NCBI RefSeq assembly: GCF_046105845.1 | Contig: NZ_CP151004.1 | Direction: 5' to 3' (one strand) | From: Escherichia coli | Lineage (GTDB): Bacteria; Pseudomonadota; Gammaproteobacteria; Enterobacterales; Enterobacteriaceae | DNA length: 64,000 nucleotides | In this document: positions 3,791 to 11,808 of the stretch, in pieces | How positions within the stretch are numbered: the stretch's first letter is position 1 | Layout: each line of letters starts with the position of its first letter | Notes under the pieces: model-generated | What the model was told of the DNA's origin: nothing | What the model saw: the letters and a program-made list of their open reading frames with translations, nothing else | Databases searched by the model: none | Translations under genes and position numbers: made by a program

Positions 3791-3808
3791 GTTCGCAAAG
3801 TGGTAACT

Positions 3809-3856
3809 GCCGTGTGTTCTCTTAAAGCTATCGTTAATGGGCACACGGCATTTTTA
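3809..3856 (+). terminator. putative glgP terminator hairpin (gccgtgtg ... cacacggc followed by atttttat)
   Basis: 8-bp inverted repeat 3809-3816 / 3842-3849 with a long loop, followed by a T-rich run, about 20 bp after the glgP stop. Confidence 0.4.
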
Positions 3857-4272
3857 TATCAGATAAACGATATGTCATGACAATTTACAGACAGCATCGA
3901 TATATAATTCATATTTATTAATTTTTAATAATGATTCTCATCTGAGTATGTATCATACAATAAGCATTATAAATAACCAATAAATTATTTATTATATTTA
4001 TATATTGCCCCACTCTTCAGTTATCCTGTCTAAAATAAATCTCTTTGTTTTCAAATGACTGTATTTTTATATAAAGTCAATCATTGCGAGCATGGATTCT
4101 TTTAGTTATATTACCAAGCAGCTCATATAATATTTTCAAGCCATTCTATCTCTTATTTTTTCTGTGGTTAACTACACCAGCTTTATTCATTTAAATAATT
4201 TGACTTATTAAAGCTGAATGTAAAAATAATCGCCAATATTGCTTGGATTTTTTAACAAAAGGAAAGGTATAA
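3857..4272 (+). promoter_or_regulatory. AT-rich leader and promoter region of the fimbrial operon (candidate nucleoid-protein silenced region)
   Basis: About 400 bp of strongly AT-rich non-coding sequence with many A/T tracts and short AT palindromes; RBS aaggaaagg at 4258-4266 precedes the first pilin ATG at 4273. Confidence 0.45.
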
Positions 4273-4977
4273 ATGAAATTCAATCTATCTAATTTATCAG
4301 CAGTTTTACTCGCATCAGGTATGCTGATGTCAACTGCGGTAACCGCTGCGCCAGGCGATGCATCACAATTTGGTGGTGCGGATACAGACTGGAGCACCGT
4401 TGATTATCCAAAACTCACCGATATGGATAACAACACCGATGCGATGGGCGGAAACATCCGCTTTACTGGTCGTGTGGTTAAAGCGACGTGTAAGGTTGCT
4501 ACAGAATCGAAACAGATTGAAGTGGTACTGCCAGTCGTACCTTCTAACGCTTTCACGGGCATTGATACCGAAGCAACGGGCGCCAGTAACCAGACTGACT
4601 TCAACATTAAACTGACTGATTGTAGCAATACGGACAGTCAAAACATTGAATTTCGTTTTACTGGCGTAGCAGACGGTGCCAACCAGACGCTTGCCAATGA
4701 AGTGGAAGGAGCTACTGATGCTGATGGTACTGGCGAAGCGGGAGCTACAGGTGTAGGGATTCGTATTTATTCTAAAAACACGACAACTGATGGCCTGATT
4801 AAACTGAACACACAAACTCCCCAGGGGAGTAGTTCTTCAGCAGCCTACGTGATTCCTGGCGATGCTGCCACTCATGATTTTACTGCGGCATTTACCGCGG
4901 GCTATGCTCAGAACGGTAGTACCGTTGCACCAGGTCTGGTGAAATCGACGGCAAGTTTCGTCGTGCTGTACGAATAA
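4273..4977 (+). CDS. fimbrial major subunit (chaperone-usher pilin), 234 aa
   Basis: N-terminal signal peptide MKFNLSNLSAVLLASGMLMSTAVTAA; conserved pilin cysteine (RFTGRVVKATCKV; second Cys in KLTDCSN); C-terminal beta-strand ...STASFVVLYE typical of the pilin donor-strand acceptor fold; first gene of the operon with a good RBS. Confidence 0.78.
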   Translation: MKFNLSNLSAVLLASGMLMSTAVTAAPGDASQFGGADTDWSTVDYPKLTDMDNNTDAMGGNIRFTGRVVKATCKVATESKQIEVVLPVVPSNAFTGIDTEATGASNQTDFNIKLTDCSNTDSQNIEFRFTGVADGANQTLANEVEGATDADGTGEAGATGVGIRIYSKNTTTDGLIKLNTQTPQGSSSSAAYVIPGDAATHDFTAAFTAGYAQNGSTVAPGLVKSTASFVVLYE

Positions 4978-4990
4978 TTACAGCAAGATA

Positions 4991-5022
4991 ATTTCAGGTT
5001 ACAGTTACTTGTAACCTGAAAT
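4991..5022 (+). terminator. intra-operon stem-loop after major pilin gene (candidate attenuator / mRNA stabiliser)
   Basis: Perfect 12-bp inverted repeat atttcaggttac (4991-5002) / gtaacctgaaat (5011-5022) with 8-nt loop, 14 bp after the pilin stop codon. Confidence 0.5.
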
Positions 5023-5097
5023 TAATATTACATGTTTATTTGTAATAAATAGACATGCATCAGTAATTACAATTAATTTCATCTACAAGGATGCAGT

Positions 5098-9046: not shown

Positions 9047-9053
9047 GGTTAAT

Positions 9054-9578
9054 ATGACACGACATTGGAATTTAATTGCCCTATTATTCTCTATGATATC
9101 TATGTCATCCATTGCTGATGATACAACGCATGCAGGTGTTGTACGCATCGAAGGAATTATAACAGCAAAGACTTGTATTGTTGCCGATGAGTCTCAAAAT
9201 TTCACAGTTAACATGCCTGATGTTCCCAGTTATACGGTGAGAAATTCAGGGAGTGTTACTGAAAAAATTGGCTTCTCTTTAAAGTTAACCCGTTGTGGCA
9301 GTGATGTCAGTCATGCCAATGTCACGTTTGATGGAACACCAGTTAGTGAAGACGCGGCCCTATATAAACTGGAAGAGGGCTCAGTCGATGGGTTAGCACT
9401 GGCTATTTTTGATAACAACAGACAAAGTATTAGCAATGGTATAAAGAGTACAAGTTATGCCCTTACACCATTGGTAGATAATACATTGCATTTTTTTGCT
9501 GCTTATAAAGCTATAAAAAATGATGTACAACCAGGAGAAGCGAATGCATCAGTTTCCTTTATCGTCACTTATGATTAA
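9054..9578 (+). CDS. fimbrial minor subunit 2
   Basis: Signal peptide, pilin Cys motif (IITAKTCIV), C-terminal ...ASVSFIVTYD; RBS gagg upstream. Confidence 0.72.
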   Translation: MTRHWNLIALLFSMISMSSIADDTTHAGVVRIEGIITAKTCIVADESQNFTVNMPDVPSYTVRNSGSVTEKIGFSLKLTRCGSDVSHANVTFDGTPVSEDAALYKLEEGSVDGLALAIFDNNRQSISNGIKSTSYALTPLVDNTLHFFAAYKAIKNDVQPGEANASVSFIVTYD

Positions 9579-10320
9579 CGTGCTGATATGCATTTTAATA
9601 TGTTGCACAAATGCGCAGGCAGGAGTTGTTGTTGGCGGTACTCGTTTTGTTTACCCAGAAAAGCAGTCATCAATTTCGGTCGAGCTTAAAAATACTGCCA
9701 GTAAAGATATGCTGGTTAAAATTTCCGTGACACCTGATGATGGACGTCAGTTAAAAGGGACACTGGAATCCCAGCCTTTACTTCCAGATAAGGCGTTTAT
9801 TGCCACACCACCATTATTGGTACTTAAACAAGATAAAAATACCAAAATAAGAATCAATCGCGTGGGGGGGCAGTTACCTATAGATCGTGAGAGTTTATTT
9901 ATACTGAATGTTGCAGCGTTACCTGCTCAGGAACAAAACTCACAGCTCAAGAATGAAAATCAACTCCAGGTGGCTGTACGTAATAGGATGAAAATATTTT
10001 ACCGCCCGGAGACGTTATCAGGTAATCCACTTGACGCTTATCAACAGTTACGCTGGTCGCGAAAGAATGAAGCTGTCACCGTTTTTAACCCTACGCCCTG
10101 GTATGTGACACTCTATAATTTATCTATTGATGGTAAAAGCATAAATGGTGGCATGGTTGCACCGTTTAGTCATCGCCAACAGGATTGGTGTCAGCGGCAA
10201 GGATATTGTGAGATTAACTGGCAAACACTGGATCTTTACAATAATGCCTTACCCGTATGGAGCGTAAAATTAAATGTTTTACAAAATAATGTGATGAGTG
10301 CAGTAGCGATACATGGATAA
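9571..10320 (+). CDS. second periplasmic fimbrial chaperone (PapD-like)
   Basis: Signal peptide MINVLICILICCTNAQA, motifs GGTRFVYPEKQSSISVELKN, LFILNVAALPA and NRMKIFYRP; start ATG at 9571 overlaps the upstream pilin stop (tATGATTAA). The ORF track's upstream Met at 9520 is less likely. Confidence 0.82.
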   Translation: MINVLICILICCTNAQAGVVVGGTRFVYPEKQSSISVELKNTASKDMLVKISVTPDDGRQLKGTLESQPLLPDKAFIATPPLLVLKQDKNTKIRINRVGGQLPIDRESLFILNVAALPAQEQNSQLKNENQLQVAVRNRMKIFYRPETLSGNPLDAYQQLRWSRKNEAVTVFNPTPWYVTLYNLSIDGKSINGGMVAPFSHRQQDWCQRQGYCEINWQTLDLYNNALPVWSVKLNVLQNNVMSAVAIHG

Positions 10321-10330
10321 TCGGAGAAGC

Positions 10331-11464
10331 ATGATGCTTACTTATTTTTGGGGAAATATAAAGGCAATTTTTATATTGTTGGCTCTTTTAATCAGTAGTT
10401 GCTATCACATCGTATATGCTGAAGATATGGGACGGGATCGCGCTTTTTGTTATCCTGGCTCACCAGGTAATAATACTACTCCAGCGACGTTTTCTTATAA
10501 TTTTGGCACTGTTACTGTCTCTGATGTTAATAATAATTCACCTGGAACAGTACTACCAGTTCAGAACTGGAAAATAGGGCATTATAATGCTTACTGTAAT
10601 TCATTGGATGATTATGAAATTTATTTTACAGCTACATCTGGTATAGATCCGTCAGGTGCATCTGGTGATCATCAGAGCAACGATATATTTATTCCATTAA
10701 CTCATGAGATATCTGTCTCTACGCATATTAAACTTTATAATAAAAACGGAACAATGACAGATAAGACAGTACCTTTTGACAACTATAGTACCAATTATCC
10801 AGCAGACAGAAGTAAACCATCGAGTTGGGCTTCAGGTACTGAAGGCTATATAAAAATTAGACTTGATAAAAAAATTATTTCCGATATCTCAATAAATAAT
10901 GTGTTGCTGGTTTCTTTGTATGCCAGCCAGTTCCCCACAGAGCACGGACCAATTCCTTTATTTAACGCTTATATTGGCAACTTAAATATTGATGTTCCAC
11001 AAGGTTGCACAATTAATGAGGGAACAAGTTTTACCGTTAATATGCCGGATGTCTGGGCCAGCGAATTAAGTCGGGCTGGTGCTGGAGTAAAACCAACAGG
11101 TATTTCTCCAGTGGCAACCACTATTCCGATAAATTGTACGAACAAAGATATTGATGCCGTAATGACGCTGGTTTTCGATGGCAATATTTCATCAACGAGA
11201 GATGTTAATGGTCGGCAAAGCATTATTCAGGCGGAGGATAACCCCGACGTTGGTATTATGATTATGGATAGCCAACAGGAATCCGTAGACTTGAACGCTC
11301 TTGCTGCGCATGTTGGTGTGCCATTTAAGTTAGTTGAAAACCAGGCTGAGTCAGCTCAGACGGCAGATGTGACTTTTCTGTCTCTCCCTGTAAGTACCAC
11401 AGGGCGACGCCCTGCTGCAGGCCGTTATAATGCCCTGGCTGTTTTGCGGGTGGAATACCAATGA
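10331..11464 (+). CDS. putative fimbrial tip adhesin (two-domain: N-terminal receptor-binding domain plus C-terminal pilin domain), about 377 aa
   Basis: Last gene of the operon; signal peptide; about twice the size of a pilin; C-terminal ...RYNALAVLRVEYQ pilin-like strand; RBS ggagaa 6 bp upstream of the ATG at 10331 (the ORF track starts at 10313). Confidence 0.65.
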   Translation: MMLTYFWGNIKAIFILLALLISSCYHIVYAEDMGRDRAFCYPGSPGNNTTPATFSYNFGTVTVSDVNNNSPGTVLPVQNWKIGHYNAYCNSLDDYEIYFTATSGIDPSGASGDHQSNDIFIPLTHEISVSTHIKLYNKNGTMTDKTVPFDNYSTNYPADRSKPSSWASGTEGYIKIRLDKKIISDISINNVLLVSLYASQFPTEHGPIPLFNAYIGNLNIDVPQGCTINEGTSFTVNMPDVWASELSRAGAGVKPTGISPVATTIPINCTNKDIDAVMTLVFDGNISSTRDVNGRQSIIQAEDNPDVGIMIMDSQQESVDLNALAAHVGVPFKLVENQAESAQTADVTFLSLPVSTTGRRPAAGRYNALAVLRVEYQ

Positions 11465-11808
11465 TGTGTGAGTCAGTGCAGAATCGGATTAGCCCGTTTT
11501 TAGCCATCGGTAGGGTAAAGTTTGATGGAAAATATGGGTTATGTGCCGATGTATCCCACAATGAAATAACCCTCGAGGGAAAGGAATCAGCGCGATGAAC
11601 AAATTCACGGTGTTTTGCTGCTAGGTGTGGTATTTCTCGGCTTTATTATTGTACCGTTCTTGATATGGCCGACGGTGGTTGCGCTGGCTGCTTGTATTAT
11701 TACGCTGAGTTTTCTGGGGAGATACTGTTCTCTATCCCGCTCATGATCAGGCGTATTTCACTTCTGGAATTACAACTTTGGTTATCGGTTGTATATGCGC
11801 TTTGTCCA

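Follow-up and report, generated by a model that had tools for sequence, protein, structure and literature searches.

The Auf fimbria of uropathogenic Escherichia coli (UPEC) CFT073 is encoded by a seven-gene operon, aufABCDEFG (c4207-c4214, the locus tags of Engstrom and Mobley), which lies between glgP and glpD and specifies two chaperones. The related gamma-1 operons bcf of Salmonella and ycb/elf of E. coli also encode two PapD-type chaperones, and are found at a locus other than glgP-glpD. In bcf and elf a large adhesin-like subunit is encoded directly after the usher, whereas in auf it comes last, after the second chaperone. Here we consider the glgP-glpD interval in a 64,000-nucleotide stretch of E. 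coli DNA (hereafter the window; RefSeq assembly GCF_046105845.1, contig NZ_CP151004.1). We conclude that this interval very probably contains the Auf locus, a chaperone-usher fimbria of the gamma-1 clade, and that its operon belongs to the allele class of enteroaggregative E. coli (EAEC) 042 rather than to that of CFT073.

Auf and Ycb are closely related and mutually exclusive in the account of Wurpel 2013. Type 1 fimbriae (fim) share the assembly logic of the window operon, with AufB nearest FimC and both AufD and AufE nearest FimF, but the window operon has an extra chaperone and lacks both a fimS-type invertible element and the fimB and fimE recombinases. The lpf operon has a single chaperone and a different chromosomal location, and the window proteins miss the LpfD and LpfC equivalog cut-offs.

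Gene content and identity of the locus

Between glgP (1343-3790) and glpD (11970-13490, minus strand), the open reading frame (ORF) list for the window contains seven intact, co-oriented ORFs on the + strand. Their starts were refined using the RefSeq annotation of near-identical loci together with sequence inspection. The products are as follows, with lengths in amino acids (aa) and protein identity to the CFT073 counterpart.

4273-4977, + strand: AufA-like major pilin, 234 aa, with signal peptide and Pfam Fimbrial domain (PF00419); 84.6% identical to AufA
5098-5850, + strand: AufB-like periplasmic chaperone (FimC-like), 250 aa, PapD_N and PapD_C; 78.0% identical to AufB
5892-8483, + strand: AufC-like outer-membrane usher, 863 aa, PapC_N, Usher and PapC_C; 80.5% identical to AufC
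8483-9046, + strand: AufD-like minor pilin or adaptor, 187 aa from the TAATG start (177 aa from the RefSeq start at 8513), NCBIfam FimF; 74.9% identical to AufD
9054-9578, + strand: AufE-like minor pilin or adaptor, 174 aa, NCBIfam FimF; 70.1% identical to AufE
9544-10320, + strand: AufF-like second chaperone (BcfG/YcbF-like), 258 aa, PapD_N and PapD_C; 67.6% identical to AufF
10334-11464, + strand: AufG-like two-domain tip adhesin, 376 aa, Pfam Fimbrial in the C-terminal half and an LpfD match; 81.3% identical to AufG

The window operon is collinear with CFT073 auf over its full length, at the same site and with the same seven-gene order and orientation relative to glgP. Both loci also have a hairpin between aufA and aufB and AT-rich DNA upstream, and neither has a local regulator. 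The initial annotation of this DNA had noted a resemblance to the auf gene order, and this is now borne out by a common position and by protein identities of 68-85%. Nonetheless, the two operons are only about 75% identical in nucleotide sequence, and CFT073 carries three hypothetical genes after aufG where the window has only remnants.

The EAEC 042 operon is far closer: along most of the operon it is 98-100% identical to the window, and the 042-type loci are about 98-99% identical to it in nucleotide sequence. The operon proteins other than those of aufB and aufG are 96-99% identical between the two. AufA of the window is 99.1% identical to the 042 and AST215 protein, and identical RefSeq proteins are common to several 042-type carriers (WP_000671312.1, WP_001309807.1). 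The 042 locus has the same downstream pseudogene remnant as the window, and differs in its aufB, which is frameshifted in 042 and intact in the window. In Wurpel et al. 2013, Table S2 places the usher of 042, EC042_3692, among the gamma-1 ushers as 'Auf', along with ECUMN_3889 of UMN026 and EFER_3402 of E. fergusonii (PMC3559732). Given this entry and the near-identity to 042, the window locus has therefore already been catalogued and is not an uncharacterised fimbrial type, an option that the initial annotation had left standing and that is now excluded. We base the clade assignment on identity, on synteny and on the table of Wurpel. The type of locus, the site where it lies and its layout with two chaperones have all been published, and a published catalogue includes this allele, which is hence already known; our literature search turned up no paper devoted to the 042-type allele. 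The window subunits are not nearly identical to the studied CFT073 subunits, as the transfer of functional data would demand, and such data (TosR induction, in vivo expression) exist for the CFT073 allele only.

Profile searches agree with this picture. The classical chaperone-usher domains are all present in Pfam (the PF00345 and PF02753 pair twice, PF13954, PF00577, PF13953 and PF00419), so that the Fimbrial, PapD_N/PapD_C and Usher matches anticipated for a seven-gene, two-chaperone operon at this site were all recovered. In the pilin, the Fimbrial match (2.8e-21) covers residues 62-233. The AufB-like chaperone matches PapD_N (1.1e-40) and PapD_C (7.1e-12), has FimC as its top NCBIfam family (9e-68) and is also a strong match to BcfB. 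The AufF-like chaperone matches PapD_N (1.2e-29) and PapD_C (3.3e-7), and its top NCBIfam families are the second-chaperone families PRK15192 and PRK11385. FimF is the top NCBIfam family for both the AufD-like (2e-30) and the AufE-like (5.7e-26) subunit. Besides its PapC_N, Usher (1.6e-198) and PapC_C domains, the usher clears the NCBIfam equivalog NF011740 (1077 bits against a cut-off of 995) and falls slightly under the cut-off of the FimD subfamily model (957 against 975 bits). AufB, AufC and AufF of CFT073 rank the NCBIfam families as their window counterparts do, and the subunits score far under the Bcf equivalog cut-offs. By identity and NCBIfam ranking alike the usher groups with AufC, and the closest ushers recovered from other genera are at most 54% identical to it. 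A scan of species-representative genomes returned only ushers of other types (43-54% identity) from Citrobacter, Salmonella, Klebsiella and others, and no Escherichia locus, its exact-peptide seeding having probably missed diverged copies such as EFER_3402.

An acidic segment of about 35 residues (residues ~26-60) separates the signal peptide of the pilin from its Fimbrial domain; it is also kept in CFT073 AufA, and is atypical among FimA-like pilins.

Overlapping stop and start codons had been put forward as a sign of translational coupling. The TAATG overlap between the usher gene and aufD is confirmed at 8481-8485, and the string ATGATTAA is indeed present at 9570-9577; the annotated aufF start, however, is 9544, which produces a 35-nt overlap with aufE. 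For aufG, the start is most likely 10334, with GGAG ahead of it, rather than the ATG at 10313 that overlaps the aufF stop.

Distribution and history of the glgP-glpD interval

Homology to K-12 ends at 3794 and restarts at 11796, leaving a K-12-differing segment of about 8.0 kb (3795-11795) that lies close to the span of 3791-11808 originally proposed. The corresponding K-12 gap is 615 bp and includes a remnant of the yzgL pseudogene. The initial annotation was thus right that K-12 lacks the operon, but not that a short spacer with repetitive extragenic palindromic (REP) sequence is all that lies there in K-12. The operon has 41.0% G+C against 52.5-52.6% in its flanks, confirming the predicted drop, and G+C at third codon positions is 28-40% in its genes against 61% in glgP. 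The machinery of an integrase-type genomic or pathogenicity island is missing: no tRNA gene was found in the whole 64-kb window, the ORF list shows no integrase, insertion sequence (IS) or regulator ORF between glgP and glpD, and no direct or inverted repeats were found bordering the segment. The ORF list, tRNA scan and repeat search therefore agree with the earlier statement that integrase, tRNA, IS element, recombinase and cognate regulator are all lacking.

The operon proper (4273-11464) was queried against 5,426 complete E. coli genomes and found in 781. Its distribution is sharply bimodal: 228 genomes carry the 042-type allele at at least 95% identity, one of them at at least 99%, and 553 carry the CFT073-type allele at about 75% identity to the window operon, with no copies of intermediate identity. 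All copies are chromosomal and all are single. The operon is absent from K-12 and from 85.6% of the complete genomes, and is therefore accessory, as the initial annotation had proposed. Genomes without auf are of two kinds: some have the K-12 spacer with yzgL, and the others a 3.7-kb module like that of O157:H7, which consists of two PstS-family genes and a hypothetical gene.

The depth of the split between the two alleles is apparent when the operon is compared with its surroundings. Identity between the window and CFT073 is 94-99.6% along glgP; a few bases from the glgP stop it has dropped to 60-80%, a level that continues through the end of aufG. Synonymous divergence (dS) is saturated in the seven auf genes (1.4-2.5) against 0.10 in glgP, which makes the two allele classes much more ancient than the divergence of the chromosome around them. 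The ratio of nonsynonymous to synonymous divergence (dN/dS) is 0.05-0.14 in the same genes, so that purifying selection has maintained both of these old classes. Against 042, by contrast, aufA and aufC-aufF have a dS of 0.0-0.04 (the frameshifted 042 aufB being left out), like the adjoining glgP, which is 98-100% identical. The core flanks of the window are closest (98.0-99.6%) to strains carrying the same auf allele, which fits vertical co-inheritance.

Downstream of aufG the interval contains two further features.

11513-11803, + strand: remnants of a second variable module, with homology to the O157:H7 module
11796-11969, no strand assigned: palindromic spacer of the REP/BIME (bacterial interspersed mosaic element) type by the glpD 3' end, where K-12 homology resumes

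The remnant at 11513-11625 is 82% identical to the O157 module and that at 11631-11803 is 89.7% identical. In RefSeq annotation of near-identical loci, the equivalent stretch is a frameshifted partial pseudogene. Only the last of the three hypothetical genes of CFT073 aligns with the O157 module (79% at the nucleotide level). The remnants, together with this mismatch between CFT073 and O157, imply that the interval has held at least two independently decaying modules. To describe the operon as 'inserted' therefore holds in so far as K-12 lacks it, but is too simple for a multi-state variable region that also contains the remains of a second module. The state next to glpD differs from strain to strain: the module is intact in O157:H7, CFT073 has its three genes, the window about 290 bp of remnants and K-12 the yzgL remnant. 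In the extracted loci these genes span 1816-4944 (O157:H7) and 198-2286 (CFT073).

These observations are best accommodated by an old, compositionally foreign cassette that would have been kept at one site and inherited with its clade. Homologous recombination in the conserved flanks may have exchanged whole alleles, and differential loss would account for the many lineages without the operon.

Several side observations concern this interval, its flanks and related loci. glpD and the following 8 kb (12000-20000) show unusual divergence from every complete E. coli genome, the best reaching 98.0%. glpD itself is about 95% identical to K-12, O157 and CFT073 and has a dS of 0.145 against 042, whereas the glgA-glgP side reaches 99.6%; this suggests either that a recombination boundary lies close to the REP region or that the lineage is poorly sampled. 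Within the REP/BIME palindromes, positions 11843-11885 (+ strand) match the Rfam small RNA family ES036 (CssrF) at 46.8 bits against a gathering score of 37.6, a match that may simply reflect REP sequence. AST215, the closest complete genome, has an IS621 (IS110-family) element in its REP region, between the auf remnant and glpD, at the equivalent of window position ~11880, where the window site is empty; the element spans 11197-12177 of the extracted AST215 locus. Adhesin relatives at 66-72% identity were considered as witnesses to the history of the glgP-glpD site and set aside; the operons to which they belong are complete and auf-like, but lie on short contigs and are preceded by DNA other than glgP. 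On a Logan contig of 9.3 kb, an auf-like operon (~69% nucleotide identity to the window), with an upstream flank that is not glgP, carries tandem adhesin genes (371 and 374 aa; 6869-7984 and 8060-9184) after the second chaperone.

The AufG adhesin, fimbrial assembly and regulation

On the evidence of profile and model searches, AufG is predicted to be an LpfD-like two-domain tip adhesin, with an N-terminal receptor-binding beta-sandwich followed by a C-terminal pilin domain. Pfam Fimbrial matches only residues 218-376, and the N-terminal receptor-binding domain (~residues 30-217) has no Pfam match. The NCBIfam FimH match is confined to the pilin domain, the FimH lectin domain having no sequence match to that of AufG, and the LpfD match extends over most of the length. 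By sequence, residues 62-374 match LpfD of adherent-invasive E. coli (PDB 5AFO) with an E-value of 2e-18. The same entry is the top Foldseek match of the AufG model (2.5e-20), ahead of CupB6, FimH, CfaE and several fimbrial lectin domains, which makes it the closest solved structure over both domains, at ~21% identity in the Foldseek alignment. Close relatives of AufG form nine 90%-identity clusters that extend down to 66% identity, and the next protein is at 28%.

Nearly all operon differences from 042 fall within the receptor-binding domain of aufG, where 18 substitutions lie between residues 12 and 144, reducing overall protein identity to 93.9%. Synonymous divergence is raised there as well: dS is 0.52 for codons 1-217, compared with 0.11 for the pilin domain, at a dN/dS of ~0.09. 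From this pattern of substitutions, the domain looks like another sub-allele imported by recombination, and not like the product of local positive selection.

The domain content and gene order described above are observed, and the assembly steps that follow are modelled on the Fim and Pap systems. Fimbrial subunits would be exported by Sec, and AufB, the FimC-like chaperone, would capture them in the periplasm by donor-strand complementation. The usher AufC would then polymerise them by donor-strand exchange into a fibre whose tip is AufG, followed by the adaptors AufD and AufE and a rod of AufA. In Pseudomonas aeruginosa, CupB4 and CupB6 are an analogue for a dedicated adhesin chaperone. By this analogy AufF, whose gene immediately precedes aufG, is probably dedicated to the adhesin.

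Three non-coding features bear on how the operon might be expressed.

3808-3856, + strand: hairpin and U-run just after the glgP stop (-20.6 kcal/mol, z -2.9, then UUUUU)
3795-4272, + strand: extremely AT-rich upstream or regulatory region of 478 bp, 27.6% G+C
4989-5024, + strand: perfect 15-bp stem-loop just after the aufA stop (-19.3 kcal/mol, z -5.4)

The first of these is a probable intrinsic terminator that would shield the fimbrial operon from glgP read-through. It lies in the variable segment, and K-12 and O157 have a different terminator hairpin after glgP. On the 3' side of aufG there is no clear terminator (z -1.7). The aufA-aufB hairpin has an equivalent in CFT073 (z -7.9), and in the distant Logan-contig locus its sequence is altered and its pairing kept (z -6.7). 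It is a probable intercistronic attenuator or mRNA stabiliser, which would raise the ratio of pilin to assembly proteins.

Two candidate sigma-70-like sites occur in the upstream region, at 4084-4112 and 4200-4227. The familiar fimbrial phase switches are not supported. For a pap-type Dam/Lrp switch, 3795-4272 contains no GATC sites and the locus no regulator gene of the PapB/PapI type. For a fim-type invertible promoter, the single inverted match is an AT-only 10-mer at 3982/4192, likely to be a chance pair in DNA of 27.6% G+C, and there is no recombinase gene nearby. This low G+C content, taken with the lack of a local regulator, leads us to propose that the upstream region would be a target of H-NS-type silencing by nucleoid proteins, and that a regulator acting in trans, for instance one of the PapB family like TosR, might activate the operon. 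The initial annotation had regarded regulation as a blank, which needs qualifying for the CFT073 allele: TosR overproduction in CFT073 is reported to lift auf transcripts by log2 2.6-6.6 (Engstrom and Mobley, PMC5956150), and auf transcripts are described as detected in infected mice (PMC12928451, citing Buckles 2004). As cited in these two papers, AufA-containing surface fibres and in vivo expression are reported for CFT073 alone (PMC5956150, PMC12928451).

Alternative readings, functional state and significance

The gap between the two allele classes might be taken to mean that the window encodes a distinct, unnamed fimbrial type that shares the auf hotspot without being a form of Auf. A nucleotide identity of only ~75% to CFT073 auf, protein identity down to 68-70% in AufE and AufF, saturated dS and the lack of intermediates in 5,426 genomes all point this way, and the receptor-binding domain could therefore differ in specificity. 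We nonetheless consider this very unlikely. All seven genes follow the order of aufA-G and are homologous to them from one end to the other, and the usher is 80.5% identical to AufC against at most 54% for the nearest other-genus ushers. Both alleles fall on the same side of the adhesin-family gap (66% to 28% identity), and the published classification by usher and locus puts the 042 copy under Auf. Less probable again, and to our minds hardly credible, is a recently acquired genomic island inserted horizontally into the glgP-glpD spacer of the source strain. The G+C contrast (41% against 52.5%, with 28-40% against 61% at third positions), the presence of the operon in just 14.4% of complete genomes and a breakpoint only a few bases past the glgP stop codon would suit such an event. 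Against it stand not only the missing integrase, tRNA, IS element and direct or inverted repeats, but also the invariable use of one chromosomal site and never a plasmid, the co-occurrence of the allele with the core background closest to the window, an auf divergence from 042 as low as that of neighbouring glgP, and downstream remnants of another module that point to long local gain and loss. Recent insertion is thus less likely than the old cassette outlined above.

A third possibility is a relic: the operon would be in decay, without function and no longer able to make fimbriae. The frameshift in 042 aufB and the internal stop in aufG of the CFT073 RefSeq record are compatible with decay, as are an IS that interrupts the usher gene in one genome, a CFT073 mutant with no reported phenotype in mice and the lack of a local activator. 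In the window, however, all seven ORFs are intact; signal peptides, ribosome-binding sites, coupling overlaps and the intercistronic hairpin are all preserved; and a dN/dS of 0.05-0.14 over saturated dS indicates long-term purifying selection on every gene. We therefore regard the relic as highly improbable, and retain the interpretation of the segment as an intact Auf locus of the 042 type.

Several points do weigh against this interpretation, in particular against its functional side. The lesions in 042 and CFT073 mean that the reference strains of both alleles may each carry a defective operon, and inactivating lesions in some carriers make the locus dispensable in some lineages. According to the account in PMC5956150, a CFT073 auf mutant had no fitness defect in murine urinary tract infection, so that the function of even the prototype is uncertain. 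The AlphaFold model of AufG is of moderate confidence (predicted local distance difference test score, pLDDT, 71). Consensus promoter and terminator scans gave site counts equal to those of shuffled sequence, and the promoter positions above are inferred only. The pairing of AufF with AufG, the silencing by H-NS and the role of the hairpin are drawn by analogy with other systems, and expression, assembly and binding by 042-type Auf are predictions from its genes. In the extracted loci, the affected genes lie at 2460-3590 (CFT073 aufG, a RefSeq pseudogene) and 25963-26714 (042 aufB).

The consequences are mainly ones of annotation. Automated pipelines name these genes just 'fimbrial protein' or 'chaperone', and screens for gene presence that start from CFT073 auf, at ~75% nucleotide identity, may overlook the 042-type allele or merge the two. 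The locus is real but ordinary, and opens no new mechanism or class of system; a modest remainder is that the adhesin domain of the 042-type allele varies among its carriers. We raise as a tentative possibility, one towards which the evidence does not yet incline us, that the two auf classes are functionally distinct fimbriae with different receptor or antigenic specificities, held as a long-lived polymorphism in which the adhesin domain is reshuffled by recombination. If true, 042-type Auf, which many strains of an extraintestinal and enteroaggregative group carry, would be an adhesin for which work on CFT073 gives no guide to the target. More broadly, auf presents an adhesin operon that persists at one site, with no mobility genes, as two deeply diverged and selectively maintained versions.

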